Origin: Parcubacteria group bacterium 21-54-25
Lineage (GTDB): Bacteria > Patescibacteriota > Minisyncoccia > Phycocordibacterales > Phycocordibacteraceae
Direction: 5' to 3'
DNA: 64,000 nucleotides
Assembly (NCBI GenBank): GCA_002255585.1
Contig: NCBJ01000001.1
Location: 49,987 to 113,986 of the forward strand
Shown: in pieces, positions 12,830-59,710 of the stretch
How the letters are laid out: each line of letters opens with the position of its first letter
Position numbering within the stretch: the stretch's first letter is position 1
Position numbers and translations under genes: made by a program
The notes under the pieces: generated by a model
What the model saw: the letters and a program-made list of their open reading frames with translations, nothing else
The model's database searches: none
What the model was told of the DNA's origin: nothing

Positions 12830-12852
12830 ATTAACTCATTAAAAAAAGTACT

Positions 12853-13317
12853 ATGTCTGACGAAGTAAAAAAGGAGGAGGAGAAGGCAACTGAGGCCGCA
12901 GCCGCTCCGGAAGTATCTGCTGCTGCCGAGGAGGCAGAAGTTGAGGTGCCGGAGCAGTTCAAAAAGCTCGTAGAAACAATCGAGACCATGACGGTTCTCG
13001 AACTCTCGGAGCTTGTGAAGGTATTTGAGAAGAAGTTTGGTGTGTCGGCGTCTGCGGTTGCGGTCGCCGCACCGGGCGCCACGGCTGCTGCAGGCGAAGA
13101 GGAAAAGAGTATGGTTACGGTAGAACTTTCCGAAGTCGGCGCCAACAAAATTGCGGTCATCAAGGCCGTGAAAGAGGTGCTTGTCTTGGGGCTTAAAGAA
13201 GCAAAAGACCTCGTGGACGGCGTACCGTCCGTGCTCAAGGAGAACGTTAAGAAAGAAGACGCCGAGGTGCTCAAGAGTAAAATTGAAGCAGCAGGCGGCA
13301 AGGTTACGTTTAAATAA
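12853..13317 (+). CDS. rplL: 50S ribosomal protein L7/L12
   Basis: C-terminal domain [56 protein letters not shown] is canonical L7/L12. The N-terminus has an acidic/Ala-rich extension. Confidence 0.9.
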
Positions 13318-15366: not shown

Positions 15367-15546
15367 TGCGAGTTTTGTACGAAATAGTTGTGCGCGTGTC
15401 TGCTGGCAGCAGATAAGCATCCTGTGTTTAACTCTGTTGACGTCCTACCGCCTCGGGTGTTGACTGGAAATAGAGTATAAGAGTAGGGAACCCCCGGCCC
15501 ATAGCCCATCCAGTGTTTGCCACACAGCAAACAAGGAGGCGCGACC

Positions 15547-15900
15547 ATGCACAAGCTCACGCAGGACGAGGCTTTGATGCAACAAATGATTCGTTGCGCT
15601 ATGGCAGACAGGGGTACTGCGCTGCTCGTAGTCTCTATAAAGGACGGAAGAACCCCTCATGAAGCGTGTCTGTGTCCGTTCTGTGCCAACGGAGAAGGTA
15701 GGGCAGGGATGTGCCCGGTACCCGGATCGTCGGTGCTGGGGAGATGCGAACATTACGTGGCGGATCGGGACGCAGTAATTCGCGAATTCCCCACCAAGAG
15801 GAGTCTGCGAGTTCTAGAAGAAATACTAAAGAAACTGAAAACGTCCGCACGCAAAAAGCCGCAGGCGGAAGAAGAGAAACAGCCGCTCCCCTGTGTTTAG
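15547..15900 (+). CDS. Small Cys-rich protein upstream of rpmF (possibly DUF177/YceD-like)
   Basis: Strong SD AAGGAGG lies 7 nt upstream of ATG 15547. Cys cluster CLCPFC...C(x11)C. A position directly upstream of rpmF is typical of DUF177. The sequence match is weak. Confidence 0.45.
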   Translation: MHKLTQDEALMQQMIRCAMADRGTALLVVSIKDGRTPHEACLCPFCANGEGRAGMCPVPGSSVLGRCEHYVADRDAVIREFPTKRSLRVLEEILKKLKTSARKKPQAEEEKQPLPCV

Positions 15901-16016: not shown

Positions 16017-16340
16017 ATGTCAATACGCATGCGTCACACCCGTTCGCACACTAATAACCGCCGGGCACACCACGCGCTTGCCGGTATCTCGGTCGTGGTA
16101 GACAAGGAGAGCGGCGCACTTCGACGCGCGCACCGTCTCGATGAGACGACCGGTAGCTATCGCGGCAGGGTAATTGCCACCCCAAAGAAAAAGAAAGAGC
16201 GTACGAAAGCCGAAAAACACGATCATCCGGCGCACACACACGTTGAGCCGGTTGCAGATAAGGATTCGTCGCAAAAGCCAAAGGTACTCGGTACGCACGA
16301 ACACGGCGACAGTCTTCCAACGTCACGCCGTGGCGCGTAG
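16017..16340 (+). CDS. rpmF: 50S ribosomal protein L32 (with basic C-terminal extension)
   Basis: MSIRMRHTRSHTNNRRAHHALAGISVVVDKESGALRRAHRLDETTGSYRGRVI matches the L32 consensus (M..Q.K.SRSRR..RR.H.AL......VDK.SGE.HL.HH....G.YRGR.V). Confidence 0.8.
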   Translation: MSIRMRHTRSHTNNRRAHHALAGISVVVDKESGALRRAHRLDETTGSYRGRVIATPKKKKERTKAEKHDHPAHTHVEPVADKDSSQKPKVLGTHEHGDSLPTSRRGA

Positions 16341-16435: not shown

Positions 16436-17338
16436 ATGGCAAACCGTCACCTTGCGCGCTCGATTATATTACAAACGCTTTTTGAATGGGATACGACACA
16501 CGCATCCCTTGATAGTGCGCGCGATATCCTCGCTCGAAACCGAGAAGAATTTGGTGGAGACGACACTGATAACCCGTTTATGGAGAAGCTCCTCACGGGA
16601 GTGCTTGCTAAGCACGGGGATCTCGACCTCATTATTGCCAAAGCGGCACCAGAGTGGCCGCTTGAAAAAATCGCGCCAATTGACCGCAACGTACTACGCC
16701 TCGGTCTTTACGAGCTTCTCTTTGCAGACCGCGCACAGGTGCCAGCAAAAGTTGCTATTAACGAAGCCATCGAACTTGCTAAAGCGTTTGGCGGTGATTC
16801 GTCGGGCCGTTTCGTGAACGGTGTTCTCGGCGCAGTGTATAAAGAAATCGGCGAGCCCGGGAAAGATGAAATCGGGAAAAAACGCACACCGCCTGCTGAA
16901 ATGCCGCTTGAGACGCTGGGCGGTGCTATCGTGTACACACAGCACGAGGGGCAATACTATCTCGCGCTTGTGCATGATGTGTTCGGACACTGGACTCTCT
17001 CCAAAGGACATATCGAACATGACTCCTCACCAGAGTTGGGCGTTGCGCGGGTCATCACTGAAGAACTTGGGCTTTCTGGTTCGGTTGAGGGACTTATTGG
17101 AGAAAACGAATACATTGCATCACACCCAGAGAAAGGGAAGACACGTAAGCACGTGTACTTTTTTCTCGTTAGCGCAAGTTTTGAGCCATTAACGCTGAAA
17201 AAAACCGGCGGTCTCGATGACGCGAAATGGTTTAAGCTCGCCGATATTCTTGACCTCAACTTCTATGATGATATGCTCCCCATCGTTACGGCGGGTGTGC
17301 AGAAGATTCTCGACCACGCACGCGCCGCAACGCGATAA
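16436..17338 (+). CDS. nusB: NusB-like antitermination domain fused to a NUDIX hydrolase domain
   Basis: The N-terminal 140 aa (RSIILQTLFEWD...IDRNVLRLGLYELLF...KVAINEAIELAKAFGGDSSGRFVNGVLGAV) is NusB-like. The C-terminal half has Nudix box GHIEHDSSPELGVARVITEELGL (G-x5-E-x7-REUxEExGU). Confidence 0.7.
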   Translation: MANRHLARSIILQTLFEWDTTHASLDSARDILARNREEFGGDDTDNPFMEKLLTGVLAKHGDLDLIIAKAAPEWPLEKIAPIDRNVLRLGLYELLFADRAQVPAKVAINEAIELAKAFGGDSSGRFVNGVLGAVYKEIGEPGKDEIGKKRTPPAEMPLETLGGAIVYTQHEGQYYLALVHDVFGHWTLSKGHIEHDSSPELGVARVITEELGLSGSVEGLIGENEYIASHPEKGKTRKHVYFFLVSASFEPLTLKKTGGLDDAKWFKLADILDLNFYDDMLPIVTAGVQKILDHARAATR

Positions 17339-18027
17339 TGCCTGACTTCACTTCATACGCAAAACAGCTCGGTCTATCATTTGATCATATCGACCTGTTC
17401 GTTGAGGCGCTTACGCATCGTTCATACCTGAACGAAAACCGGAGCGTCGTACACAGTCACAACGAACGCCTTGAGTTTTTAGGCGATGCGGTGCTTGAAC
17501 TTGTCGTCACACACTTTCTTTTTATGAAATTTCCGGAGAAGCCGGAGGGCGAACTAACCGCCTATCGCGCTGCGCTCGTTAACACACAGTCGCTTGCGTC
17601 GTCTGCCGAAGCACTGGGAGTAAATGACATGCTGCTCTTGTCAAAGGGGGAGGCGAAAGACACCGGTCGCGCGCGGCAAATTATTCTTGCCAATGCTTTT
17701 GAGGCGATCGTGGGAGCCGTCTACCTCGATCGAGGATATGCTGCTGCGGCGCATTTTATCGCTGCTACCATTCACCCAAAAATAGATGCGGTGGTCGCCG
17801 GGCGCCTCTGGCAAGATGCGAAGAGTCGCTTTCAGGAAGTGGCGCAAGAGCAGCACGGCGTGACGCCGCGCTACGAAACACTTGGTGAAGAAGGTCCTGA
17901 TCACGACAAACATTTCACCATCGGGGTGTTTCTTAAAGCAGAGCAGATTGCACTAGGCTTCGGCAAGTCAAAACAGGAAGCAGAACAAGACGCCGCACGC
18001 GTTGCGTTACAGAAAACCGGCTGGTAG
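17338..18027 (+). CDS. rnc: Ribonuclease III
   Basis: Signature ERLEFLGDAVLELVV. C-terminal dsRBD (KSRFQEVAQEQHGVTPRYETL...GKSKQEAEQDAARVAL). Confidence 0.9.
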   Translation: MPDFTSYAKQLGLSFDHIDLFVEALTHRSYLNENRSVVHSHNERLEFLGDAVLELVVTHFLFMKFPEKPEGELTAYRAALVNTQSLASSAEALGVNDMLLLSKGEAKDTGRARQIILANAFEAIVGAVYLDRGYAAAAHFIAATIHPKIDAVVAGRLWQDAKSRFQEVAQEQHGVTPRYETLGEEGPDHDKHFTIGVFLKAEQIALGFGKSKQEAEQDAARVALQKTGW

Positions 18028-18092: not shown

Positions 18093-20303
18093 ATGCTTAA
18101 GCGACTTGAGATTGCGGGATTTAAATCATTTGCACGAAAGACCGTGCTTGATTTTTCTTCTTCCGTGACGGCAATCGTGGGACCAAACGGATCGGGAAAA
18201 TCAAACGTGGCTGAAGCGTTTCGTTTTGCGCTCGGTGAGCAATCCATGAAGAGCATGCGTGGCAAGCGGAGCGAGGATCTCATCTTTAGCGGATCGCACT
18301 CTGCAGCACGCACTAATCGCGCCGCAGTGGCTATCGTTTTTGATAATTCACGCCGACTCTTTGCGCTCGATTTTGATGAGGTGTCCATCGAACGCGCGGT
18401 CTTTCGCGACGGTACGAGTGAGTATTTTATAAATGGTTCCAAGACGCGCCTACGTGATGTTCAGGAGCTTTTGGCGCGCGCCAATATCGGTGAGAGCGGG
18501 CACCACATTATTTCACAGGGCGAGGCAGACCGTATTTTGCTCGCCTCGCCGCGCGATCGCCGCTCGACGCTTGAGGACGCACTCGGTTTGAAGGTCTATG
18601 AGTTTAAAAAACAGGACGCGATACGCAAGCTAGAAAAGACCGAAGAAAATATTTCTCACGTTGAGGCATTACGCCGTGAACTCGCACCGCACCTACGTTT
18701 CCTCGGCAAACAGGTGGAGAAGCTTGAGCACGCCGCGCAGTTGAGGAGTGCGCTCGCTCAGGCAGCGTGCGAATATTTTTCCATTGAAGACATTTACATA
18801 GAAAAAGAAAAATTTCGCGTTGCAGCTGCGGAAGCGTCTGCAACCGAACAGCTTGCCGTTGCTTCTGCGGAATTGTCCGCGCTTGAAAAACACGCTGCGG
18901 GCGATGCGCAAGGCATGGCGCACCTGCGCACCGTGCGCGCAGCCGAAGCGGCACTTGAAACAGCAACCAGTACACGCGCAGCACTTTCTCGCGAGATCGG
19001 GCGGATTGAGGGTGCGCTCGCAGAGACGAAGAAGCGCGCACATGCCGTAACGCAAGACCCATATGCAAAAGTGCCGCGCGCCGACATTGCGGCGCTTCAC
19101 GATGAGATTGAGCGCCAAGCCGAAGATGTTTCGGGCGAACCGGAAGCGCTTGCCGCAGCCCTCTCGGCTATTCGTGTGGCAGGGCGCGCGTTTTTCGAGC
19201 GTTTTGCCGTATCCAAGGACGACTATTTGGCTGATGAGGAGCGTGCACTGCATGCGCTTGAGGAAGAGCGAGAAATGCACACCGCAAAAGATGCGGCACT
19301 TGCCGAAGAAGTGGAGCATGCACGCATGGCGCTTGCACGTGCACGCGAGGAATCCATCGCGCACGACGAAGCCGGTCGTGAAGGACAGCGACGCCTCATT
19401 GACCTTGCACAAACACAGGCACATGCTGAAGCGGAAGTAGCGCGCCTCTCTGTACGTCGTGCCGAAATCACGCACCTTGCCGAAGAATGTGAACTCGGCA
19501 AACAGGATGTAGCCGCACTTGCGGGTCCCGCAGTGCTTTCATATGCGCCGCGTATGGATATGCCGGATGAACCACGCACCGTACAAGAAACTCGCCGCCG
19601 CACGCTCGAGCGCCTTAAAATTCGTCTCGAAGAATCCGGCGGAACCGGCGAAGATATCCGTCGAGAGTTTGAAGAAGTGTCCGAGCGTGAACAGTTTCTC
19701 GCGCGCGAGCTCGCTGACCTCGCGCAATCGGCGAGCGGCTTGAAGGCGCTCATTGCCGACTTGGACGCCGAACTCGCAAAACATTTTGCTGAGGGGCTTG
19801 CGAGTGTGAATCAATTTTTTGGAGAGTTCTTTTCACTTATGTTTGGTGGCGGCGATGCACGACTCATTCTTGAAGAACCAGCGGCGGTTAGAAGTGACGA
19901 GGACGCAGAAGATTCAAATGAGGATGCGCACGTGCGTGCCGTGGATCGACCAGGCATTGAGGTGTCGGTACATTTGCCAAAGAAGCGCGTGCAGGCACTC
20001 ATGCAACTTTCCGGCGGTGAGCGGGCGCTTACTTCTATCGCGCTTATTTTTGCCATGAGTCAGGTGAATCCGCCGCCATTTTTGATACTTGACGAGACCG
20101 ACGCAGCGCTTGATGAAGCGAACAGTCGTCGCTATGGCGACATGATTGAGACGCTTGCCAAGCGCTCGCAACTGATCGTCATTACGCATAATCGCGAGAC
20201 GATGAGTCGCGCGAACATTCTTTACGGGGTCACGATGGGTGGCGACGGCGTTTCCAAACTCCTCTCCGTGAAATTCGACGAAGCCGTGGCCGTAGCGAAA
20301 TAG
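18093..20303 (+). CDS. smc: SMC-family chromosome segregation ATPase, short form (about 736 aa)
   Basis: N-terminal head MLKRLEIAGFKSFARKTVLDF...IVGPNGSGKSNVAEAFRFALGEQS. C-terminal head LSGGERALTSIALIFAM...FLILDETDAALDEANSRRYGDMIETLAKRSQLIVITHN. Conserved rnc-smc linkage. The coiled-coil region is only about 450 aa. Confidence 0.8.
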   Translation: MLKRLEIAGFKSFARKTVLDFSSSVTAIVGPNGSGKSNVAEAFRFALGEQSMKSMRGKRSEDLIFSGSHSAARTNRAAVAIVFDNSRRLFALDFDEVSIERAVFRDGTSEYFINGSKTRLRDVQELLARANIGESGHHIISQGEADRILLASPRDRRSTLEDALGLKVYEFKKQDAIRKLEKTEENISHVEALRRELAPHLRFLGKQVEKLEHAAQLRSALAQAACEYFSIEDIYIEKEKFRVAAAEASATEQLAVASAELSALEKHAAGDAQGMAHLRTVRAAEAALETATSTRAALSREIGRIEGALAETKKRAHAVTQDPYAKVPRADIAALHDEIERQAEDVSGEPEALAAALSAIRVAGRAFFERFAVSKDDYLADEERALHALEEEREMHTAKDAALAEEVEHARMALARAREESIAHDEAGREGQRRLIDLAQTQAHAEAEVARLSVRRAEITHLAEECELGKQDVAALAGPAVLSYAPRMDMPDEPRTVQETRRRTLERLKIRLEESGGTGEDIRREFEEVSEREQFLARELADLAQSASGLKALIADLDAELAKHFAEGLASVNQFFGEFFSLMFGGGDARLILEEPAAVRSDEDAEDSNEDAHVRAVDRPGIEVSVHLPKKRVQALMQLSGGERALTSIALIFAMSQVNPPPFLILDETDAALDEANSRRYGDMIETLAKRSQLIVITHNRETMSRANILYGVTMGGDGVSKLLSVKFDEAVAVAK

Positions 20304-23739: not shown

Positions 23740-24517
23740 GTGGGGACGTGTTTACGGCAATAGAAAGACCCACATAAAGAGAGCGGATAGGCCGCAGGCC
23801 TCAGCATGCAAATGCAACCGCTCCTTGGCGGTTTTTTCTTTTTTGCACGGGGAACACGAGACCTTTGACAACTGAATACGTATAGGTAATCAAAGTGCAA
23901 ACTGCCAAGCAGTATGCAAATAATGCTTGGCATTCAACGAGAAAATCGTTTTGTGGTGTATAGGTCTCCACGCAGGAGACAGTAAGGGTGCACGGTGGAT
24001 GCCTTGGCTTGCGTAGGCGATGAAGGACGTGATTAGCCGGCGATACGCTTCGGGGAGGTGGCTTTTAACCTTCGATCCGGAGATGTCCGAATGGGGAAAC
24101 CCTCCCGCCATGCGCGGGAACCATACGAGTAACGTCGTATGGAGCGCACCTGGGGAAGTGAAACATCTCAGTACCCAGAGGAAAAGAAAGCAATAGTGAA
24201 CCGTTTTTTATCGGCCCGACTAGTCTGGCTGATAAAAAACGGTTCCCGCGATTCCCTAAGTAGCGGCGAGCGAAACGGGATAAGCCCAAACCCACATGTT
24301 CGCATGTGGGGGTTGTAAGGCAGGAACGCAGTACTTGTACTGGAAGAGTTATCAATCATACTTATAGAAGAAACTGCTGGAAAGCAGTGCCCAAGACGGT
24401 AATAGCCCCGTATTTGAAATGGGTATGACTCTTTCGTTCCTGTTCTTGAGTAGTTCGAGACACGAATAGCTCGAATGAATCTACCAGAACTAACTGGTAA
24501 GGCTACATACTACGCAA

Positions 24518-24563
<46 letters not shown>

Positions 24564-25260
24564 GATGAGGGGAGTGAAATAGAACTGAAACCGTGTACCT
24601 ACAAAGGGTCGGAGCCCATGATTCTTTTGAGTCAGGGTGACGGCGTGCCTATTGAAGAATGAGCCTGCGAGTGTGTGTCTGTTGCATAGCTAAGCCCGTA
24701 ATGGGGTGGAGCTTCAGGGAAACCGAGTGTGAATAGCGCGTCGGTAGCAGACATACGACCCGAAGCCAGATGAGCTTGCCATGAGCAGGGTGAAGTGTGT
24801 CGAAAGACACATGGAGGCCCGAACCCGTTGGTCGTACAACGCCTTGGGATGACTTGTGGTAAGGAGTGAAAAGCTAATCGAATCTGGTAATAGCTGGTTC
24901 TCTCCGAAACAGCTTTTGGGTTGGCGTCGCGTGATCCTTCTGGGGGTAGAGCACTGGAAGGGATGAACAGGGAGAAATCTCGTCATTCCTATCAACCTCC
25001 GAATACCAGAAGTTACAGCGCGGCAGTTAGAAGGCGGGGGCGAAGCTCCGTCGTTCGAAAGGGGAAGAGCCCAGATCGCCAGTTAAGGCCCCAAAATCGA
25101 CGCTCAGTACAAGGTGAGGAAGTAAGAATCCTGAGACAATGAGGATGTTGGCTTAGAAGCAGCCACCATTTAAAGAAAGCGTAACAGCTCACTCATCGAG
25201 GGTTCTTGCGCCGTAAATAATCGGGGTTAAGCGTCGTGCCGAAACTGCGGGTTTGCACAC

Positions 25261-25437
25261 TTCACAGGGGAGGAAACTTCCTAAATGTTCTTCGGGGTGG
25301 CGTTCTTCTACGCGCGGACAAAATCCGCTGCGAGGAGGCCAGAGGTATAGCCCTCACCACCCCGACCACTTTCTTTACGAAAGTGGTCAAGAATTATTGA
25401 GACGAATCTAATCATAATGATTCGCCTCTCCTGTGAA
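25261..25437 (+). other. Intervening-sequence-like expansion in 23S helix 45
   Basis: A 177-nt insertion closed by the long-range stem TTCACAGGGGAGG...CCTCTCCTGTGAA. E. coli has a short helix at this point (around position 1170, a classic IVS site). Confidence 0.5.
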
Positions 25438-26178
25438 GTGTGCAAGCGGTAGGAGAGCGTTCTGTTCCGCTATGAAGGGAAAGGGGTGACCCGTCCTGGA
25501 GCGTACAGAAGTGAGAATGCAGGCACAAGTAACCACAATGCAGGTGAGAACCCTGCACATCGAAAGACTAAGGTTTCCCGGGCCATGACAATCATCCCGG
25601 GGTTAGTCGGACCTAAGGGGATGGCGAAAGCCGCACCCGATGGACACACGGTCAATATTCCGTGACCGCCGCACATGCGAGTGGGGTGACGGACTGCAGT
25701 ACTGACGGCCAGTTATTGGATTCTGGTTGGTTTCGTAAGGGGGCGCTCTAGGTAAATCCGGAGCGCGCATACCCCAAGCGATGCCGCGACTTTCTTCTTC
25801 GGAGGGAGGAAGCGTCAGGAGCGCGGTTCCAAGAAAAACCTCTAAGCTTCAGTGTGCGTGCGACCGTACCGAAAACCGACACAGGTGGTCTGGTCGAGAA
25901 GACTAAGATGAACGAGTGAGAGGTCCTCAAGGAACTCGGCAAACAAGCGGCCGTAACTTCGGGATAAGGCCTGCCCATCGCAAGATGGGCCGCAGCGAAA
26001 GATTTCCTAGCGACTGTTTACCAAAAACACAGCTCCCTGCGAACTCGTAAGAGGAAGTATAGGGGGTGACGCCTGACCAATGCCGGAAGGTCAAGTACGG
26101 GTGGTTACATACTTCGGTGTGTAGCTGGACTGTATAAGCCCCGGTGAATGTCGGCGATAACTATAATCGTCCTAAGGT

Positions 26179-26547
26179 CAGACACACTTTTCAGAAATGA
26201 TAAGCGTGTCTGAGGATTGGGACGATTGTAGGGTAGACAGTAACGTCAGCTGCCTTACTGCACAGCAATGTGCAGATTAATCCACCCATGGCCATATGCT
26301 GGGAAGGGAGTGTCTAGGGCATAATTATTCCTTAGACATGAACGATCAGCAGGAAAGATCGAGAATTGAAGGATAGATTGTGGAATTTACGGATAGAGAA
26401 GGGCTTCAGAAGGAAGATTGCGTACATTAATAGAGCGCATGAATCGCAAGAACCCATCACAATTCTTGAAATCCTCAGAGACTACACGCCATGCCCCCGT
26501 ACACGATGCGGGGTGAAGATATAGTCCAAAGGTTTAAAGGAACCTAG
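26179..26547 (+). mobile_element. Group I intron 1 in 23S rRNA (about 369 nt, no ORF), inserted at CCUAAGGU|AGCGAAAUUCC (around E. coli position 1917)
   Basis: The exon junction restores the universally conserved sequence. The P7 core is CAGAGACTACACG ... AAGATATAGTCC (compare Tetrahymena CAGACUAAAUG ... AAGAUAUAGUC). The 5' exon ends in U and the intron ends in G. Confidence 0.7.
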
Positions 26548-26998
26548 AGCGAAATTCCTTGTCGGGTAAATTCCGACGTGCACGAATGGCGTAACGACTG
26601 GGAAACTGTCTCGAGGACTCGCTCGGTGAAAATGCAATACCGGTGAAGATGCCGGTTACCTGTAGTTAGACGAAAAGACCCCAGGAGCTTTACTGCAGCT
26701 TCGTATTGGGGCTACGTGATACGTGCGTAGCATAGGTGGGAGACTTTGAAGCGTGCCTTTTGGGGTACGTGGAGTCGCCAGTGAAATACCACTCTCGTAT
26801 TGTGTAGTTCCTAACCGTCGGGTGGAACCCCGTCGGGACCGTGCGTGGCAGGCAGTTTTAGTGGGGCGCTATCCTCGAAAGCAGCGCCCATCCGACTAAA
26901 TCCAAAAACAGGAAAATATAAAAAAGGGGGACTATGTGAAGTAATTCACATAAGCAATCTGGCTAAATGCTGGAACATCCGAGAATCTTCAAGTACTC

Positions 26999-27023
26999 AT
27001 TTAGGACACGCCGTGTCCTAAAT
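26999..27023. repeat. Palindrome family 2, copy A (ATTTAGGACACGCCGTGTCCTAAAT), inside intron 2
   Basis: 25-nt perfect inverted repeat. The centre CGCCG is inverted relative to copies B and C. Confidence 0.8.
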
Positions 27024-27178
27024 AGTGAAAATCTTTGAAGTGCGGACAATCAGCAGGGAAGACTCGCAAGAGAACCCTCAGAGACTACACGCCAGACTCC
27101 GCGCATAGCGGATGAAGATATAGTCCGATCTGCATGGCGACATGCAGGCGCAATTTCCTCCCGTGATTGCGCACGCCC

Positions 27179-27203
27179 ATTTAGGACACGGCGTGTCCTA
27201 AAT
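27179..27203. repeat. Palindrome family 2, copy B (ATTTAGGACACGGCGTGTCCTAAAT), inside intron 2
   Basis: Part of the 31-nt hairpin CCCATTTAGGACACGGCGTGTCCTAAATGGG. Confidence 0.8.
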
Positions 27204-27549
27204 GGGGAACACAAGCCTAAAAAGTAACGGAGGAGCCTATTAAGGTCGGCTAGGCGCGAATGGAAACCGTGCCGATAGTGTAATGGCACAAGCCGGCTTA
27301 ACTGCGAGGGGTACATCCCAAGCAGATGCGAAAGCAGAGCATAGTGAACCGATGGTTCGCCTTAGAAGCGGCCAGAGATTAACGGATAAAAGTTACCCTG
27401 GGGATAACAGGCTAGTACCGCCCAAGCGTCCATAGCGACGGCGGTGTTCGGCACCTCGATGTCGGCTCACCTTAGCGCGGGGCTGAAGCAGGTCCCAAGC
27501 GTTTGGCTGTTCGCCAATTAAAAAGGTACGCGAGCTGGGTTCAAACCGT

Positions 27550-27926
27550 CGAGCACCTGAATCACGCGATTCGGTTGTTCGACCCGTTTGAACCCCGAGG
27601 AAACTGTTATATAGAATCTGCACAAGATCTCATTGCGTATGCGATGAGTAACTTGAGCAGGTTTGCATGTGTGTGGAGACGCACAAAAAAAGACATACTC
27701 ACGGCGGCGCATTGCAGGAATGCAGTGCGAGCAAATCGACTGATATCGGTGAAATCCTGAACGTTGTGTACGTGAAGGACAATACCGAGGGAAGTGCGGT
27801 AACGCATGCCCCTAGAGACTGAATGTCGATCACCCTACCCATCGAAAGATGCCGGGTGGTGTTACAGTCCGATCCCTTCAGTAATGGAGGTAACGTTCTG
27901 CGCGAAAGCGAAGGACAAACTAGATG
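27550..27926 (+). mobile_element. Group I intron 3 in 23S rRNA (about 377 nt), inserted in AACCGU|CGUGAGACAGG (around E. coli 2593-2596)
   Basis: The exon junction restores the conserved GAACGUCGUGAGACAGUU. Divergent P7 pairing is AGAGACTGAATG ... GTTACAGTCC. Only an 85-aa ORF without homing-endonuclease motifs lies inside. Confidence 0.55.
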
Positions 27927-28069
27927 CGTGAGACAGGTTGGTCTCCTATCTACTACAGGCGTTGATTCTTGAGGGGGCTCGTCCCTAGTACGAGAGGACC
28001 GGGATGAACTGACCTCTGGTCTACCTGCTGTCGCGCCAGCGGCATCGCAGGGTAGCTATGTCGGGTTTT

Positions 28070-28100
<31 letters not shown>

Positions 28101-28328
28101 TTGCCCCAAGATAAGGAATCGTTATGAGACTCCTGGAAGATGACCAGGTTGATAGGCTTTAGGTGTACGCACAGCAATGTGTTCAGCCGAGAAGTACTAA
28201 TACGTCCAGTCTCTTGCGTGGAAATCTGTATGACACAATACGATTTCTCGTTGTGTGCTTTTAGTACCTATACGTATACAGTGGGTGGTCAGAAACCGCC
28301 GCGCGCTTGTGCGCGCTGACGGAGAAAT

Positions 28329-28457
28329 GCGCCCACAGTGTTGGTGATTAATCGGAGGGGATATACCCGTTCCCATTCCGAATACGGCAGTCAAGCCCTC
28401 TTGAACCGATGGTACTCCGCAAGGGGGAGAGTAGGTAGTCGCCAACACTGTGGGCGC
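28329..28457 (+). rRNA. rrf: 5S rRNA
   Basis: CCCGTTCCCATTCCGAATACGGCAGTCAAGCCCTCTTGAACCGATGGTACTC...GGGAGAGTAGGTAGTCGCCAACAC matches the 5S consensus. Helix I pairs GCCCACAGTGTTGGTG with CGCCAACACTGTGGGC. Confidence 0.8.
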
Positions 28458-28650: not shown

Positions 28651-28682
28651 AAAACACCGCTCAAAATGAGCGGTGTTTTGGT
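28651..28682 (+). terminator. Rho-independent terminator at the end of the 23S-5S unit
   Basis: AACACCGCTCAAAATGAGCGGTGTTTTGG. Confidence 0.6.
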
Positions 28683-28693
28683 ATACTAGGCGC

Positions 28694-29485
28694 ATGGCAA
28701 TGAGGGGATTATCGTGGGCAGACCGCCGCCGCGCAATAGTGTTGCTCATACTCGCAGCTATTGGTCTTTCGCTGTTATTTTTCACGTACCATACCGCTTT
28801 CTATCGTGCGCCATCGTGCACCGATGGCATTCAGAATCAAGGGGAGGCGGGTATTGACTGCGGCGGGCCGTGCCAGTATTTATGCAGCACGCACGTGCAA
28901 CCGCCAACCGCGCAATTTGTACGACCGCTGGCAAACGGAGGGAACCGTACTGATATCATCGCGTATATTGATAATCCAAATCCCGCCGCTGCGGCAGCGG
29001 GTGCGACATACTCCGTACAACTGTATGGCACCGACGGGGCGTTGCTTGCACAGAAAAGTGGCACGGTTGATTTGCCGCCCCACAGCACGGTGCCGGTGTT
29101 CATGCCTAATTTCTACAATGGCGCAGGGCAGGCCGCAAACGCTTTCATCACGTTCGATCAGGCGTCACTCAAATGGTTTTTAAGTACGACGTCTCCTCAA
29201 ACGCTTCCCGTGTCAAACATTCAAGTGGCGGCGAGTACGAGTACGCCAAATGTGACGGCTACGATTACGAACCCTACTGCACTGCCGTTCTATAACGTGC
29301 GCGTGGTGGTAGTGGTGCTTGGTGCGTCCAGCTCATCAAACAACGTTATCGCGGCATCACAGACCGTGGTGCCGAGCATTCCTGCGCAGGGGACCGCCCC
29401 GCTCACGTTCACCTGGAGTGTACCGTTTGCAGGTACGCCTGTACGCGAGGAAATATTTCCGATTGTGCCGCTCGCGCATCCGTAA
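28694..29485 (+). CDS. Membrane-anchored hypothetical protein (N-terminal TM, extracytoplasmic beta-rich domain)
   Basis: TM helix AIVLLILAAIGLSLLFF. Cys cluster CTDGIQNQGEAGIDCGGPCQYLC. The stop is 1 nt before the SEDS gene start. Confidence 0.5.
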   Translation: MAMRGLSWADRRRAIVLLILAAIGLSLLFFTYHTAFYRAPSCTDGIQNQGEAGIDCGGPCQYLCSTHVQPPTAQFVRPLANGGNRTDIIAYIDNPNPAAAAAGATYSVQLYGTDGALLAQKSGTVDLPPHSTVPVFMPNFYNGAGQAANAFITFDQASLKWFLSTTSPQTLPVSNIQVAASTSTPNVTATITNPTALPFYNVRVVVVVLGASSSSNNVIAASQTVVPSIPAQGTAPLTFTWSVPFAGTPVREEIFPIVPLAHP

Positions 29486-41224: not shown

Positions 41225-41253
41225 TTGACGGGAACACGGTGAAAAGGTACCAT
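41225..41253 (+). promoter_or_regulatory. Candidate promoter upstream of 16S rRNA (TTGACG-17 nt-TACCAT)
   Basis: Sequence match only. Confidence 0.25.
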
Positions 41254-41399
41254 AGCGGAACCGCTCTTGGGGCGGTTTTAGTTTCTTTGAAAGACTGGGT
41301 TTCGATAAAAAAGATGCACTCGAGTCGCATCTCGGAACCCTCCATAGCAGTAGATAGAACGTAAAAGTTCTAATGTGTTCTATTGCGTTCCGCCTATTC

Positions 41400-42857
<1,458 letters not shown>

Positions 42858-43166
42858 TGGAATTGATGTCTCCGAAAGAGCATCTTGTCGATCATTAGAC
42901 CTAGTCTAATGGGGAGATAGCACTTGTCCCTACACAGTGCTCGGACGCCGGAACCCCGTTACCGGTATCCCGTTGAGCGCCTCAATTGAGCGCTCAAGGG
43001 ATGAATAGGCGGAACGCAAGAGAACACATGACAAGAAACCCGCGCAGCTCTGCTGCGCGGGTTTCTTGCTGCGTCTGTGTGAGCGCGGATTTCTGGCTGG
43101 TATCTGTATGGTCACAAATGCGCTGGCAGCGTAAAGGAATATCTGTTAGTATCGCAAAACGTACGC

Positions 43167-43240
43167 GCGAGTGTAGCTCAGGTGGTTAGAGCACTCCCCT
43201 GATAAGGGAGAGGCCCCAGGTTCGAGTCCTGGCACTCGCA
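43167..43240 (+). tRNA. tRNA-Ile (anticodon GAT)
   Basis: Acceptor GCGAGTG/CACTCGC. D-arm GCTCAGGTGGTTAGAGC. Anticodon loop CTGATAA. T-arm CCAGGTTCGAGTCCTGG. CCA is not encoded. Confidence 0.9.
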
Positions 43241-43308
43241 CACTTTCTGTGTTATAGTTTTCTCGGATCAGAAACGCCGCGCACGCGGCATAAAAAGGGA
43301 GACTGCAC

Positions 43309-43902
43309 ATGAAGCGGGAACAGCAACAGCAAGGGTCGTTCACCGGCCCCGTTCTATTGGCACGCGCGCTGTACGAGTGTCGAGACACACGAGAGTGCGC
43401 ACAGGAGCTTGTCAATCTGCGCGGCGCACTCGACGCGCACGCGCGGTTCTTGTTGAGCCACGCCACCTTCGATTCAGCGGCCGAGGTTGCCGTAGTCGCA
43501 GAAGTACTGTTCTGGATCGCCGTTCAGGATGTCGCCGCACTCACCGAGGGCGAGGGGAAACAGCTCCTTCACCGCGCGCGCGGGCTCTGCACAAAAGGGA
43601 TTGCTCTTTCGGATCGTGCGGAAGAGACGAACCACCTTGTGACCGCACGGTGTTACATCACACGTGCGGCCGTGTACCTCGTGGAAGGCAACGGAGTCGC
43701 GGCACGGCGTAACCTCGACGGCGCCATTTTTCATGCACCGCGCATTCAGGACCCAGAGTCTCGGGCGCTGGCGTACGAGAAGATTGCGTACGTCATCGAG
43801 TATGATGGCAGTCTACTCGGTGTCCCTTTTGGGAACCTACGGGCTTTGTTGCTTCGGCTTAGGGCGGGGTTCACGCACTGGGCTCCGCGTCGTCCAGCGT
43901 AG
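43309..43902 (+). CDS. Hypothetical protein (197 aa)
   Basis: Good SD AAAGGGAGA upstream of the ATG. Followed by terminator AGGCCCGCACTTGCGGGCCTTTTT (43917-43941). No domain recognised. Confidence 0.5.
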   Translation: MKREQQQQGSFTGPVLLARALYECRDTRECAQELVNLRGALDAHARFLLSHATFDSAAEVAVVAEVLFWIAVQDVAALTEGEGKQLLHRARGLCTKGIALSDRAEETNHLVTARCYITRAAVYLVEGNGVAARRNLDGAIFHAPRIQDPESRALAYEKIAYVIEYDGSLLGVPFGNLRALLLRLRAGFTHWAPRRPA

Positions 43903-43941: not shown

Positions 43942-43992
43942 TATCCACGCACGCCTATCTGAGAGCACGCAAACACTTGCTATACTTCTTAT

Positions 43993-44475
43993 ATGAATAA
44001 AGATATCGCGATACTTGGGGGCCTTGCACTGCTTGCGTTTGTCGTAGGCGGCAGTATATTTTTCTTCGGATTAAAGACAACGAATACGTCATTGCCGGTT
44101 TCAGTAATTGCGCAAGGAACGAACGCGTCTGTTCTAACGCGCAGTAATTACGTTATCAAGAACGAGAGTGACTGGCAGCAATTCAAGACGCTCTTTGATG
44201 GCACCAGCGGCTCCCCGCTCCCTACGATTGATTTTTCGAAAGAACAAGCGCTCGCTGTTTTTGCTGGAGCGGAGCCGACCGGGGGGTATCGCATAGAAGT
44301 CTCGAAGATAACCGATTCCACACAGAAACGAACGATTGACGTTACCATCTCTACGCCAGGCCCCCACTGCACGGTCACACAGGCGCAGACAAGCCCATAC
44401 GAGATTGTGGTCGTTCCAGCCACTTCGCTGCCGCTTATGCACGTTGATACAACCAAGGTGTCCTCGTGCCAATAG
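43993..44475 (+). CDS. Membrane-anchored hypothetical protein (160 aa)
   Basis: N-terminal TM helix ILGGLALLAFVVGGSIFFF, then an extracytoplasmic domain with two Cys. Confidence 0.5.
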   Translation: MNKDIAILGGLALLAFVVGGSIFFFGLKTTNTSLPVSVIAQGTNASVLTRSNYVIKNESDWQQFKTLFDGTSGSPLPTIDFSKEQALAVFAGAEPTGGYRIEVSKITDSTQKRTIDVTISTPGPHCTVTQAQTSPYEIVVVPATSLPLMHVDTTKVSSCQ

Positions 44476-49591: not shown

Positions 49592-49671
49592 CCTATACAT
49601 TTTCTTGGCGCAATGGAGCGTTCCTAAACAGAGTCAATACTCCGCCTCTTAGTGCGGTATAATCGACCGTA

Positions 49672-51408
49672 ATGGAGAACCCTGAACGTGTCACGTACTT
49701 TGCCGCAACTGATGCGCGCGGACAACGCACGCCGTTTGGTATCAAACAGAAGGATCGTTCCAAACACATGTACGTTATCGGCAAAACAGGCATGGGCAAA
49801 TCAACCCTGCTCGAGAACATGGCGATACAGGATATTCGAAATGGCGAGGGACTCGCTTTTATCGACCCGCACGGCGGCACTGCCGATAAGTTGCTTGACT
49901 ACATTCCAGAGGAACGAATACCCGACGTAGTGTACTTTGCGCCGTTTGATATGAATCAGCCGATTGCGTTCAACATCATGGAAGACGTGGGATACGACAA
50001 ACGCCACCTCGTGGTAAGCGGTCTCATGGCGACGTTCAAGAAAATCTGGCAGGATGCGTGGAGCGCGCGCATGGAGTACATTCTCTCAAACACACTTCTG
50101 GCGCTTCTCGAGTACCCGGACGCGACGTTGCTTGGCGTCAACCGCATGTATACCGACAAGGCATATCGCAAACTCGTCGTGGACAACGTGAAAGATCCAC
50201 TCGTCAAAGACTTCTGGACAAAAGAGTTTGCTGGCTACACTGACCGCTATACGCAGGAGGCGACACCGGCTATTCAAAACAAAATCGGCCAATTCACGAG
50301 CAATCCGCTCATTCGAAACATTATCGGGCAACCGAAGTCCTCGTTCGATATTCGCGAGATGATGGACCAAAGAAAGATTCTTATCATCAATCTCTCCAAA
50401 GGACTCGTGGGTGACACCAACATGCAGCTCTTGGGCTCCATGCTTACGACGCGTATCTTTTTGGCGGCTATGAGCCGCGCTGACGCAGCAGCACCAGAGA
50501 TGGCCAAGCTGCCACACTTCTATTTCTACGTCGACGAATTCCAGAACTTCGCAAACGAAACATTTGCCGAGATACTTTCCGAGGCGCGCAAATACAAACT
50601 AAACCTCGTCATTGCACACCAGTACGTAGAGCAGATGGAGGAAGAGGTGCGCGCAGCGGTCTTTGGCAACGTCGGGACAACGGTAGCGTTTCGCGTCGGA
50701 CCGTTTGACGCGGAGATACTCGAGACGGTGTTCATGCCAGAATTTACCAAAGAAGATCTGGTGAACCTTGGGTTTGCGCAGATCTATCTTACCCTCATGA
50801 TTGACGGCGTCGGTTCGCGGCCGTTCTCTGCCGTCACTATTGCACCCATTGAACCGCCTCCACACACGTTTAAGACTGAGGTCATCGAGGCGTCGCGTGC
50901 GCAATTTGGGCACCCTCGCGACCAGATAGAAGCAGCCGTTACAGCAGAGCTTGCTACCACTACCAGCACGGAAACGAGGGGCGCTAGTGCCGCCCCACCC
51001 GCGCGCAACGGGAAAAAGGCTCCCCGGATATCTCCGCGAGATACGGAACAGTCTCCGCCGATCGAAGGAACTACCCACCGCCCACCACGCCCTGTTGCGG
51101 TCCCCCCAACACCACAAAAGACGGCTGACGAGCTCAAGGCCGTACTACGTTCGATTACCACCACTACTTCCGCCACCAAACTGCGCAAAGAAACAACACA
51201 GAAGCACGCGCTCAAGAGCGCGCTTTCTGACGTGCTACAGCGTGCCGGGGGAACGACATCCTCATACAAACCGCCCCACAATGCGCCGGTGCCAGGCCCT
51301 GCGCGCCCACGTGAATCACCCCCACAACAAAAAGAAAACAGAGAAGCAGCTCTTCCATTTGAAGTGCCTGAAGAAACGTTGAAGAACGTACTTAATGGCC
51401 ATGCGTAA
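49672..51408 (+). CDS. P-loop ATPase, TraD/VirD4/DUF87-like (type IV coupling-protein-like) with Pro/Thr-rich C-terminal tail
   Basis: Walker A YVIGKTGMGKSTLL, then AFIDPHGG. Walker B FYFYVDEFQNFA. The C-terminal 180 aa are low-complexity (PPPHTFK...PRPVAVPPTPQK...). Confidence 0.5.
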   Translation: MENPERVTYFAATDARGQRTPFGIKQKDRSKHMYVIGKTGMGKSTLLENMAIQDIRNGEGLAFIDPHGGTADKLLDYIPEERIPDVVYFAPFDMNQPIAFNIMEDVGYDKRHLVVSGLMATFKKIWQDAWSARMEYILSNTLLALLEYPDATLLGVNRMYTDKAYRKLVVDNVKDPLVKDFWTKEFAGYTDRYTQEATPAIQNKIGQFTSNPLIRNIIGQPKSSFDIREMMDQRKILIINLSKGLVGDTNMQLLGSMLTTRIFLAAMSRADAAAPEMAKLPHFYFYVDEFQNFANETFAEILSEARKYKLNLVIAHQYVEQMEEEVRAAVFGNVGTTVAFRVGPFDAEILETVFMPEFTKEDLVNLGFAQIYLTLMIDGVGSRPFSAVTIAPIEPPPHTFKTEVIEASRAQFGHPRDQIEAAVTAELATTTSTETRGASAAPPARNGKKAPRISPRDTEQSPPIEGTTHRPPRPVAVPPTPQKTADELKAVLRSITTTTSATKLRKETTQKHALKSALSDVLQRAGGTTSSYKPPHNAPVPGPARPRESPPQQKENREAALPFEVPEETLKNVLNGHA

Positions 51409-53913: not shown

Positions 53914-54279
53914 CTAAGCTCGAGTCGAAATGAGTGAGAGCCAAGGATTGGGCGCGGAGCCATCAAGGAGCAACTCCTCGTTGTCGATCTCAATCGTTGG
54001 TTCATCGAGGTAGCCTGTAGGAATCCACACCTCCTCGTCCACTAGGGGTCCGAAGTGGTTGGGGGGAAGGAGCAAGTAGAGCCAACTAGACGTGTTTGCC
54101 GCTATGCACGCTCGGATAAAGTCCTCACGGAAGAATCCAAGCAGAGCGTACGCCGCTTGCCAAGAGGTTGGTTTCTTGGTGACCGAGATCGTGAACACAA
54201 GCGGGTCAGTTTCGCCGGACCCGTCGCTACACTGTGTCTGTCTGCGCCCAAATACGTATACGTAGTGTACATCTGCCAT
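53914..54279 (-). CDS. Hypothetical protein (about 121 aa)
   Basis: ORF 53914-54339 with the likely start at MADVHYVYVF. No domain recognised. It is the only minus-strand gene in this stretch. Confidence 0.35.
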   Translation of the reverse strand: MADVHYVYVFGRRQTQCSDGSGETDPLVFTISVTKKPTSWQAAYALLGFFREDFIRACIAANTSSWLYLLLPPNHFGPLVDEEVWIPTGYLDEPTIEIDNEELLLDGSAPNPWLSLISTRA

Positions 54280-56203: not shown

Positions 56204-56229
56204 TTAAAAGCTGGTGATATACTCCGGAC

Positions 56230-57006
56230 ATGGATACTCATGACCTCATCACCACTGCTGTACGCAAGGCAGGAGAGTTGGTTGTGCGTCTGCGCAAAGA
56301 GCACTTTGAGACTTTGAGCAAGGGCGACAATCCGCGCGATATCGTGACTTCGGTCGATCTTGTGGTGAACGATTTTTTGGTAGAGAAGATTCGTTCGGTA
56401 TTCCCTGACGACAAGATTTACTCTGAAGAAGGAGCCGACGCAGTTACGAGTGCTCCGCGGCTCTGGACCATTGACCCTATCGACGGGTCATCGAATTTCT
56501 CGCGCGGAATTCCACATTATTCAATTTGTCTTGCGCTTCTTGTGAGTGGGGTGCCAGAAGCGGGTGCCGTTTACAACCCAGTTACGCAAGAGCTGTTTAG
56601 CTTCAAGCGGGGCAGTGGTGCGTTCTTGAACGGAACACAGATTCACGTTTCCACGGAGGCAGAACTCAAGAACGCATTTGTTCTTTTACATGCCGGACGC
56701 AAGCCCGAATTACGCGAATGGGGCGGGAACGCCTATCGACAGCTTCTTGAGCACGCAAAGAAAACGAGCAATCTTGCAGGGAGCGCACTCGACATGTGCT
56801 TTGTAGCGGCAGGTCGTGTCGAGATAGACATTTATGGTACGGGTACCCTGCTCGACATTGCAGCTGCGGTAGGCATTTTGCGCGAAGCTGGGGGTATTAT
56901 CATAAACAAGGAAGGAGAGCCGGCAGAACTACTGGGAGTACCGCAGCGCATTATCGCAGCAAACTCGGCCGCCATGGCTGACCAGGTTCGATCAGTTGTC
57001 GGTTAA
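56230..57006 (+). CDS. Inositol monophosphatase family protein (SuhB/IMPase-like)
   Basis: WTIDPIDGSSNFSRGIPHYSICLAL signature (DPIDGT) and the C-terminal GTLLDIAAAVGILREAGGII motif. Confidence 0.75.
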   Translation: MDTHDLITTAVRKAGELVVRLRKEHFETLSKGDNPRDIVTSVDLVVNDFLVEKIRSVFPDDKIYSEEGADAVTSAPRLWTIDPIDGSSNFSRGIPHYSICLALLVSGVPEAGAVYNPVTQELFSFKRGSGAFLNGTQIHVSTEAELKNAFVLLHAGRKPELREWGGNAYRQLLEHAKKTSNLAGSALDMCFVAAGRVEIDIYGTGTLLDIAAAVGILREAGGIIINKEGEPAELLGVPQRIIAANSAAMADQVRSVVG

Positions 57007-58678: not shown

Positions 58679-59710
58679 ATGAGGCTCGTCATAGCGACAC
58701 CACTGTATCCGCCCGAGCCGGGCGGACCGGCTACCTATGCAAAAGTTTTGGCGGAGGGGTTACCGGAGCGGGGCATCGAGGCGGCACTTGTGAAGTTTAG
58801 CGACGTGCGGCACCTGCCAAAGCTTGTGCGCCACGTTGCGTACTTCGGGCGAGTACGCCGCGCGCTCAGGGGTGCTGACGCCGTGCTTGTGCTTGATCCT
58901 GTCTCTACAGGGCTTCCCGCGTGTCTTGCCGCGTGGTCGCTCAAAAAGCCGCTTGTGGTGAAGGTGGTAGGTGACTACGCGTGGGAGCAGGGGCGGCAGC
59001 GTTTCGGGGTCACTGCGGGTTTAGATACGTTCGTGAAGACAAAAAAAGTACCGATAGCAGTGCGTTTTTTACGCAAGGTGCAGACTGGCGTCGCACACCG
59101 CGCGCGCGCGGTCATTGTGCCGAGTGCATACCTTAAAGGCATTGTGAAGAATTGGGGAATTCCAGAAGAGAAGATTCACGTTGTGTACAACGGCGTCGAG
59201 TTGACGGAATCACTGCCTACCCCCAAGCGCCCGAAGGGGCTTCTTGTTGTTTCAAGCGGACGCCGGGTGCCCTGGAAAGGGTTTGAGGCGCTTGGGCGTG
59301 TGGTGGCTCGTGAGCCGTCATGGCACCTACACATTGCCTCGGACGTTTCTCCTGGAGAAGCACGTGGGTGGGTGCGCGCGGCGGATGTTTTTGTTCTGAA
59401 CTCCACGTATGAGGGCCTTTCGCACGCACTCATTGAGGCCATGATGTTGGGCACGCCGATTATTGCCACTGCGGTTGGGGGTAATCCGGAACTTATTAAA
59501 GACGGTGTCACAGGGCTTCTTGTCCCACCCGGAGACGACGACGCGCTCCACGCCGCTCTGCAACAGGTCGACCACGACCCAGCCGCCGCGCGCACCCGCG
59601 CGGCGGCTGCCCAGAAAGCCGCCGCGCGCCTTACGCCAGCTGCTATGATTGAAAATACGGCAGCGCTCATACGATCCAATTTACCCAATTTAGGACACGG
59701 CGTGTCCTAA
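58679..59710 (+). CDS. Glycosyltransferase family 1 (GT4)
   Basis: The N-terminal domain as above. C-terminal LNSTYEGLSHALIEAMMLGTPIIATAVGGNPELIKDGVTGLLV. Confidence 0.75.
   Translation: MRLVIATPLYPPEPGGPATYAKVLAEGLPERGIEAALVKFSDVRHLPKLVRHVAYFGRVRRALRGADAVLVLDPVSTGLPACLAAWSLKKPLVVKVVGDYAWEQGRQRFGVTAGLDTFVKTKKVPIAVRFLRKVQTGVAHRARAVIVPSAYLKGIVKNWGIPEEKIHVVYNGVELTESLPTPKRPKGLLVVSSGRRVPWKGFEALGRVVAREPSWHLHIASDVSPGEARGWVRAADVFVLNSTYEGLSHALIEAMMLGTPIIATAVGGNPELIKDGVTGLLVPPGDDDALHAALQQVDHDPAAARTRAAAAQKAAARLTPAAMIENTAALIRSNLPNLGHGVS

Follow-up and report, generated by a model that had tools for sequence, protein, structure and literature searches.

UAUCC in place of the anti-Shine–Dalgarno core in the 16S rRNA of a Parcubacteria bacterium, with sequence signatures suggesting leaderless and coupled translation initiation

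The 16S rRNA gene in a 64-kb stretch of contig NCBJ01000001.1 (assembly GCA_002255585.1, positions 49,987 to 113,986; hereafter the window) from Parcubacteria group bacterium 21-54-25 lacks the CCUCC core of the anti-Shine–Dalgarno (anti-SD) sequence at its 3' end and carries UAUCC in its place. In our reading this is the genuine 16S rRNA of a bacterium of the Paceibacteria (Parcubacteria, Candidate Phyla Radiation or CPR) close to Candidatus (Ca.) Kaiserbacteria, in which helix 45 and the adjoining GAUCA have been retained and CCUCC has been swapped for UAUCC. The same reading holds that translation in this organism would start without Shine–Dalgarno (SD) pairing, by a combination of leaderless mRNAs and translational coupling. 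We put the probability of the whole at roughly three in four.

The gene matches the Rfam bacterial small-subunit (SSU) rRNA model RF00177 over its full length and far above the gathering score (1359 against a threshold of 50 bits). Helix 45, with its GGAA loop, and the single-stranded GAUCA that follows are present as the model expects (42821–42849), at the highest posterior-probability symbol. The 13-nt tail GAUCAUAUCCGAA then aligns with the consensus GAUcACCUCCUUu column by column and without a gap in the cmscan output, the top symbol being kept throughout. It reads GAUCA-UAUCC-GAA where the Rfam consensus has GAUCA-CCUCC-UUu (42845–42857), a change from CCUCC to UAUCC that takes two substitutions and no insertion or deletion. 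Neither CCUCC nor CCUCCU occurs in the 13 nucleotides after helix 45. CCUCCU was present in 20,495 of 20,648 re-annotated bacterial 16S ends (PMC6107228), and the tail in the window is therefore far outside chance variation.

The gene is flanked by two strands (41373–41398 and 43004–43030) predicted to pair as a classical pre-16S processing stem, which was checked as a targeted 25-bp stem, and beyond it lies a terminator-like hairpin (Table 1). CCTCC has no occurrence from 42701 to 43400, that is, through the stem and the terminator and for 540 nt past the tail. An earlier note on this DNA, made from the letters alone, had claimed that the canonical CCUCC was missing from the 16S terminus, that a helix 45 with a GGAA loop (read correctly, at 42821–42844) was followed by a non-canonical tail, and that no anti-SD motif lay within 150 nt. 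The structure-aware alignment of the 3' minor domain which it proposed as a check has now been made with cmscan and RF00177, and it bears out these claims together with the coordinates and the quoted sequence.

Relatives carry the same tail. We searched one genome per GTDB species for GTCGTAACAAGG-N20-26-GGATCATATCC and found the GGATCATATCC tail in 13 species representatives, labelled Paceibacterota, Paceibacteria, Parcubacteria, Ca. Kaiserbacteria, Ca. Ryanbacteria, Minisyncoccia or Patescibacteria (two of the labels are probably mis-binned). Across this set, 16S identity to the window runs from 96% down to about 82%. In these genomes helix 45 shows compensatory changes (GGCUAGC/GCUGGUC, GGGUAGC/GCUGCUC and GCGUAGG/CCUGUGC), and the sequences part immediately past the tail. 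Over 999 nt the window 16S shares 96.2% identity with a Ca. Kaiserbacteria metagenome-assembled genome (MAG), and it is 90–95% identical to MAGs of Paceibacteria and Minisyncoccia; similarity of this order places the source organism in the Parcubacteria/Paceibacteria.

A scan of metagenomes was anchored on the helix-45 base of the clade (CACG...CGTG plus GGATCA), with the tail left free, and returned at least 120 contigs. Among the matches listed, CCTCC is found in only five of 120 helix-45-anchored 16S contigs and is missing from 115; the other tails are ATTAA (30), TTTTT (21), CTACA (10), TTTAA (7), ATTCC (5), TCTCC (3) and others. The type of tail follows 16S similarity among these matches, in which the next neighbours, at about 85% identity of the 16S 3' end, have CTTCC and ATTCC. 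With 13 species sharing the identical tail and 115 of the 120 clade contigs listed lacking CCTCC, the trait is common to relatives and is not a one-off error. The replacement of CCUCC is real, heritable and clade-wide. To judge from the distribution of tails, loss of the anti-SD extends over a large Parcubacteria clade, UAUCC appears as the state of a Kaiserbacteria-like sublineage within it, and the CUUCC and AUUCC of the neighbours look like related decay states.

A plausible history is that SD function was lost and that the tail would then have drifted lineage by lineage, to CUUCC or AUUCC in the nearest neighbours and to AUUAA, UUUUU or CUACA in distant Parcubacteria. Era binds GAUCACCUCC, and era has been lost in most CPR (PMC10582724). 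Since GAUCACCUCC is what Era reads, the loss of era might have eased the change, plausibly by relaxing a second constraint to which the tail was subject.

Gene starts in the window show no use of SD sequences. We took 48–49 genes of the window from the gene calls attached to public assemblies; these supersede a greedy selection of the longest open reading frames (ORFs), which chose antisense ORFs over rplJ and rplL. For each start the best duplex energy (dG) between positions −20 to −2 and either the canonical or the actual tail was compared with that of gene interiors, and 42 Escherichia coli genes were run as a positive control with identical code. The control behaves as it should: against the canonical tail the mean dG in E. 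coli is −6.37 upstream and −3.77 in interiors (p = 7e-10), and SD 4-mers occur in 57% of upstream regions against 4% of interiors. This is not the case for the 48 window genes, with means of −3.20 upstream and −3.72 in interiors against the canonical tail (p = 0.99) and of −3.59 and −4.37 against the actual tail (p = 1.0). The 4-mers GGAG, GAGG and AGGA are seen upstream at 10% and in controls at 8%. By k-mer counts GGAG is observed three times upstream (3.3 expected), GAGG twice (2.8) and GGAT three times (2.3).

Thus neither duplex energies nor k-mers reveal SD enrichment ahead of the ORFs of the 48 window genes, and there is no enrichment of a GGAUA k-mer upstream of the window starts. The window genes use neither a canonical SD nor a co-evolved alternative one, and we infer that SD:anti-SD pairing no longer serves start-site selection in this lineage. 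The earlier note had stated that most starts were without an SD, naming rplJ, rplL, the RAYT gene and rnc, and the test with its E. coli control confirms this for the set and for the named genes. It had also picked out a few strong SDs, AAGGAGG before 15547 and AAGGGAGA before 43309; both are real, and their number is at chance level.

The k-mers most enriched upstream of the starts are instead TATAC, GGTAT, ATACT and TGGTA, which together make up an extended −10 promoter box (TGnTAnnnT). With the gene calls unrevised, TANNNT hexamers cluster at −12 to −14, counted from the A of the start codon, in 13 of 48 genes, in seven of them exactly at −12. When the calls are ignored and a first-ATG rule is applied, the hexamer stands at −12 in eight of 43. 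A scan for the box led to revision of seven starts (8173, 10129, 20351, 21056, 28694, 34035 and 56230), five of which coincide with the annotation of GCA_035427565.1, and after revision the box is found at −12 to −14 in 20 of 48 genes (about 40% of ATGs) against two of 42 in E. coli. A hexamer occupying −12 to −7 would let the transcription start fall on the AUG.

Two further observations tie the box to genuine starts. An ORF of at least 100 codons is opened by 43% of the ATGs preceded by a box and by 18% of those without one (Fisher p = 1.5e-5), and TGn precedes 10 of 19 boxes, against 7% when every TANNNT site of the window is counted. Leaderless architecture is recognized by a −10 hexamer that starts at about −12, and this hallmark appears in the window as the positional peak, accompanied by the TGn enrichment and the prediction of ORFs. 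In relatives with the TATCC tail TANNNT stands at −12 in eight of 56 starts and at −14 in seven of 56; in other anti-SD-less relatives it stands at −12 in 43 of 428, over a background of about 17. We note that two public annotations of this population differ on certain starts (8164/8173, 10117/10129, 20339/20351, 21038/21056, 28700/28694, 34062/34035 and 56284/56230), and at each of these the candidate that seems preferable is the one preceded by a −10 box at −12 to −14.

Fifteen of the 48 genes (about 30%) overlap the upstream gene or sit no more than 15 nt from it, an arrangement expected for termination–reinitiation, which would imply translational coupling. The boxed and coupled classes together account for about 70% of the genes, and the remainder, rplJ and rplL among them, have G-poor, A-rich upstream regions. 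We propose that operon-first genes would have extended −10 promoters set such that transcription begins at, or within 1–2 nt of, the A of the AUG, and that ribosomes would bind the resulting leaderless mRNAs by way of their 5' AUG. Translation of genes further downstream would rely on termination–reinitiation or coupling over overlaps of the ATGA type or gaps of 11 nt or less, and a minority of genes would keep short, A-rich, G-poor leaders. It is the spacing of the box that points to leaderless initiation here.

Several other explanations have to be weighed. The tail might be an artefact of assembly or sequencing, or a chimeric join at the 3' end of the 16S gene, since rRNA genes often break metagenome assemblies; indeed, a Logan contig begins 80 nt upstream of the tail, within the 16S gene, and assemblies do fragment there. 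Yet the window and contig DAICZD010000001.1 of the NCBI MAG GCA_027311325.1 are 100% identical, Logan contigs from SRR5352536 match the window identically (SRR5352536_7267 covers the tail), and the tail has the same sequence in the NCBI MAG and in the Logan assembly. The assembly GCA_035427565.1, compared for the regions flanking the tail only, is 99.97% identical over 20.7 kb (7338–28027, seven mismatches) and fully identical over 42969–63844. The processing stem spans the gene consistently, and the same 11-mer recurs with differing flanks in 13 other species. An assembly artefact was one of two findings that the earlier note named as fatal to its claim; it is refuted by the relatives, with three assemblies of the population on the same side, and we give it practically no credence. 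The other was an intervening sequence or 3' extension with the true anti-SD farther downstream, so that the mature rRNA would still carry CCUCC. CPR rRNA genes are known for insertions, the 23S rRNA gene of the window has several, a group I intron among them, and the trailer ahead of the processing stem is unusually long (145 nt) and structured. Against this, near the 16S 3' end the alignment has nothing inserted with respect to the SSU model and runs ungapped up to model position 1533, no Rfam intron match lies near that end, and the relatives likewise have no CCTCC in the 60 nt past the tail. As leader, stem and terminator-like hairpin are all in view and free of CCUCC, an intervening sequence ahead of the anti-SD is excluded. 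A CCUCC downstream or behind an intron was accordingly dropped, the trailer giving only sub-threshold Rfam matches to terminator-like leader models, and a hidden anti-SD in any form seems to us barely more credible than the artefact.

If the tail is taken as it stands, UAUCC could be a working alternative anti-SD that has evolved in step with a complementary SD, for instance GGAUA. The pentamer is constant in 16S sequences whose identity falls to about 82% and whose local GC content varies over 39–61%, with divergence right after it, which suggests constraint, and GGATA is seen twice upstream of starts against 0.6 expected. However, the invariance among 13 genomes is partly a product of the search design, pairing with the actual tail is poorer upstream of starts than in interiors, GGAT is close to expectation, and in the survey of Amin et al. 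no organism combined an altered anti-SD with a correspondingly altered SD (PMC6107228). We consider this very improbable. A stronger competitor, though still an unlikely one, accepts the loss of the anti-SD and has initiation proceed mainly through unstructured A-rich leaders, bS1 and a Kozak-like context as in Bacteroidia, the TANNNT peak being a by-product of AT-rich leaders. Upstream regions have 28% A and 22% G against a background of 23% and 27%, A stands at −3 in 22 of 48 genes, and several genes, for example rplJ and rplL, are A-rich upstream without a −10 box. The TANNNT signal is nevertheless placed sharply at −12 to −14 and is not diffuse, and bare AT-richness would give neither the excess of TGn at the boxes nor their power to predict long ORFs.

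The reading that we prefer, an altered tail combined with leaderless and coupled initiation, has points against it. The analysis covers a 64-kb piece of one genome with about 48 genes, together with short flanks of relatives, and outside a window of this size the genome may hold a second 16S copy with CCUCC. That UAUCC is invariant in the 13 genomes follows by construction, the exact tail having been the search query; among the matches of the tail-blind scan listed, a single contig has at least 88% identity of the 16S 3' end, and it too has TATCC. The mature 3' end of the 16S rRNA and every transcription start site are deduced from sequence only. The seven revised leaderless starts depend on repositioned start codons, five with the agreement of GCA_035427565.1. 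The −35 elements are weak, with a mean of 2.9/6 against 2.6/6 in controls. Weak −35 elements are usual for extended −10 promoters. Lastly, strong canonical SD-like motifs do occur at a few genes (15547, 43309 and, on the minus strand, 53914–54279).

Some of these motifs merit description. The hypothetical ORFs 53914–54279 (minus strand) and 15547–15900 (plus strand), neither with a Pfam match, have near-perfect SDs (AAAGGAGGT and AAGGAGG, respectively) at proper spacing, which could reflect chance, a bias of the gene caller or recently acquired DNA. SD-like sequence also lies upstream of three non-ATG starts (13459, 55645 and 56284), which the gene caller may have picked for that motif. CPR relatives with a CCTCC tail, which would provide an SD contrast, amounted to five loci with six usable ORFs, too few for comparison.

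Loss of the anti-SD in this group is not new. The motif was detected in only 48% of Parcubacteria by Tsurumaki, Saito, Tomita & Kanai (2022, RNA 28:1041; PMC9297842), whose available text notes an overlap of the anti-SD-less lineages with a group lacking uL1 and supposes that SD helices do not form. Their Parcubacteria subgroup shares with our window the taxon and the absence of CCUCCU from the end of an otherwise intact 16S rRNA, and the broad loss recurs in our metagenome scan; with the same clade and the same phenomenon, the finding is therefore already known. What that text gives is presence or absence of the motif, to which we add the replacement itself (UAUCC, in at least 13 species) and the suggested leaderless-plus-coupling architecture. 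The latter may be a modest addition: a literature search of incomplete coverage turned up no paper that connects leaderless initiation with the CPR or Patescibacteria. With regard to uL1, rplJ and rplL (12332–13317) stand alone in the window, with two hypothetical genes without a Pfam match upstream, no rplK-rplA and no rpoB following. This context is compatible with the uL1-lacking Parcubacteria group and is no proof of membership.

Lim et al. reportedly described in 2012 the loss of the anti-SD in other phyla, with SDs lacking. Organisms without an anti-SD are also generally without SDs in the survey of Amin et al. (2018; PMC6107228), and both reports agree with the results for the window. 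The sporadic losers (Chryseobacterium, Elizabethkingia, Riemerella, Blattabacterium, Mycoplasma and Ca. Carsonella) resemble it in having a recognizable helix 45, a 13-nt tail without CCUCC, no SD enrichment and a lineage-coherent distribution (PMC6107228). They differ in belonging to other phyla, many being AT-rich endosymbionts or Bacteroidota, whereas the window organism is a CPR bacterium of 54% GC with a promoter box at leaderless spacing. In Bacteroidia the outcome is the same, starts being chosen without SD pairing and upstream regions being G-poor and A-rich, but there, according to the available text, CCUCC is intact and sequestered by bS21, bS18 and bS6 (PMC13000453), whereas in the window the 16S sequence itself is altered. 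An SD-blind ribosome of the Bacteroidia type, with an intact and protein-occluded CCUCC, is not what the window encodes, as its 16S rRNA has no CCUCC.

Mammalian mitochondrial mRNAs are leaderless or nearly so. The mitochondrial 12S rRNA likewise has no anti-SD and a conserved helix 45 (PMC10582724). Mitochondria are organelles with a handful of mRNAs and dedicated factors, and the comparison is one of analogy only, with no evolutionary link. Among bacteria, the leaderless-rich Actinobacteria and Deinococcus-Thermus keep a canonical anti-SD and use SDs for leadered genes. The window organism differs from them in that its 16S rRNA offers no anti-SD at all. The likeness lies in a −10 hexamer about 6–8 nt before the start codon and in the dominance of AUG starts, in Mycobacterium, other Actinobacteria and Deinococcus-Thermus. 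One reference for such leaderless-rich bacteria is Cortes et al. (2013, cited in PMC12641261).

The surroundings of the 16S gene have features of their own (Table 1). The 3' trailer between the tail and the processing stem (42858–43003, 145 nt) is strongly structured and might bear on 16S 3' maturation; conserved GGAA and GUCG motifs flank its first hairpin, at 42864–42886. The processing stem directly adjoins the 16S 5' end and leaves its long spacer on the 3' side, which reverses the asymmetry of E. coli. A GGAU/AUCC mini-hairpin proposed by RNAalifold inside the tail was set aside because every column is invariant and offers no covariation support. The hairpin at 43031–43069 also yields matches, permissive and below threshold, to Rfam terminator-type leaders of the Leu/Thr kind on the plus strand. 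A promoter-like site lies upstream of the 16S gene at 41225–41253, and the gene looks like a separate transcription unit. The order of the rRNA genes is unusual and unlinked, with 23S (23972–28219) and 5S (28340–28447) followed by 13 kb of protein genes and then 16S. The 23S gene is 4248 nt long against a model of 2925 positions; a 348-nt insertion near model position 2295 contains the group I intron match (26910–27147, 77 bits), and further insertions lie near model position 1940 (86 and 99 nt) and near model position 228 (54 nt). No ORF of 90 amino acids or more was found within the 23S intron region.

Other parts of the window deserve brief mention. A 300-residue protein (16436–17338) has an N-terminal NusB domain (residues 4–137) fused to a NUDIX domain, and its stop codon overlaps the start of rnc (ATGA). 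The SMC homologue (18093–20303) has 736 residues against a profile of about 1180 positions; its head domains are matched, and a large part of the coiled coil seems to be absent. A gene with a ribosomal protein L32 domain (16017–16340) encodes 107 residues, about twice the usual length. A RAYT-like Y1 transposase (8173–8883, a weak PF01797 match) lies between two genes for peptidoglycan-binding-domain proteins. ARAGORN calls an 88-nt tRNA-Arg(TCT) at 59559–59646 on the minus strand, within the 3' end of a glycosyltransferase gene that runs the other way; Rfam's tRNA model is silent there at its gathering score, and the call is probably a false positive.

Table 1. Positions of the 16S transcription unit, of SD-like motifs and of predicted leaderless starts in the window.
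Feature	Position	Strand	Remarks
SD-like AAGGAGG, 7 nt ahead of ATG 15547 (117-aa hypothetical protein)	15533..15539	+	Isolated; within chance expectation
rnc (RNase III)	17338..18027	+	TIGR02191, 247 bits; likely enzyme for the leader/trailer stem
Predicted leaderless start: TGGTATACT, 6 nt, ATG 28694	28679..28696	+	In frame, 6 nt upstream of called start 28700
5' leader strand of predicted pre-16S processing stem	41373..41398	+	Duplex with 43004–43030, dG −41.9 kcal/mol
16S rRNA gene, full length, 1459 nt	41399..42857	+	RF00177 match 1359 bits, model positions 1–1533 (cmscan); separate from 23S-5S genes
Helix 45, CACGGCUAGC-GGAA-GCUGGUCGUG	42821..42844	+	GGAA loop intact; cmscan structure line; compensatory stem changes in relatives
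3' tail GAUCAUAUCCGAA, 13 nt	42845..42857	+	Single-stranded; GAUCA kept, remainder off consensus; cmscan
UAUCC at the site of the anti-SD core CCUCC	42850..42854	+	Alignment; pentamer also in 13 GTDB species representatives and one metagenome contig from the tail-blind search
Hairpin in 3' trailer right after the tail, GAUGUCUCC-GAAA-GAGCAUC	42864..42886	+	RNAalifold, 11 relatives: six pairs maintained via two-sided changes
3' trailer strand of predicted processing stem	43004..43030	+	Presumed RNase III substrate; 145 nt past tail; no CCUCC between
Terminator-like GC-rich hairpin	43031..43069	+	Would close the 16S transcription unit; full 18-pair hairpin listed on minus strand, shorter plus-strand site 43049–43061
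tRNA-Ile(GAT)	43167..43241	+	Downstream of 16S, beyond the terminator; ARAGORN; Rfam tRNA model 73 bits
SD-like AAGGGAGA ahead of ATG 43309	43295..43302	+	Gene seems to have a leader of about 44 nt from promoter-like site 43229–43258
Predicted leaderless start: TGCTATACT (extended −10), 6 nt, ATG 43993	43978..43995	+	CTGAGA-16-TATACT with TG
Predicted leaderless start: TATAAT, 8 nt, ATG 49672	49658..49674	+	Positional analysis of the box
Predicted leaderless start: TGATATACT, 6 nt, ATG 56230	56215..56232	+	Start used in GCA_035427565.1 annotation

The anti-SD is among the most conserved of bacterial sequences, and its loss therefore signals that ribosomes have come to locate start codons in another way. 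One practical consequence is that gene callers which reward an SD may misplace starts in these genomes; seven of the 48 starts in the window look mis-called. The −10 box at the AUG provides a testable model of initiation for a very large group of uncultured bacteria. Tails specific to a clade (UAUCC, AUUCC, AUUAA, UUUUU and others) could act as phylogenetic markers, and together they form a natural series in which to explore the other constraints on the 16S 3' end.

For the anti-SD-less Paceibacteria in general, we are evenly divided on a wider proposal, namely that start selection has shifted largely to transcription, with an extended −10 at the AUG and reinitiation downstream, and that the tail GAUCAUAUCC and the covarying trailer hairpin are kept for a role other than SD pairing, for example 3'-end maturation or 30S assembly without Era. 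If this is true, a large uncultured clade would be a natural bacterial case of essentially SD-free translation, similar to that of mitochondria.

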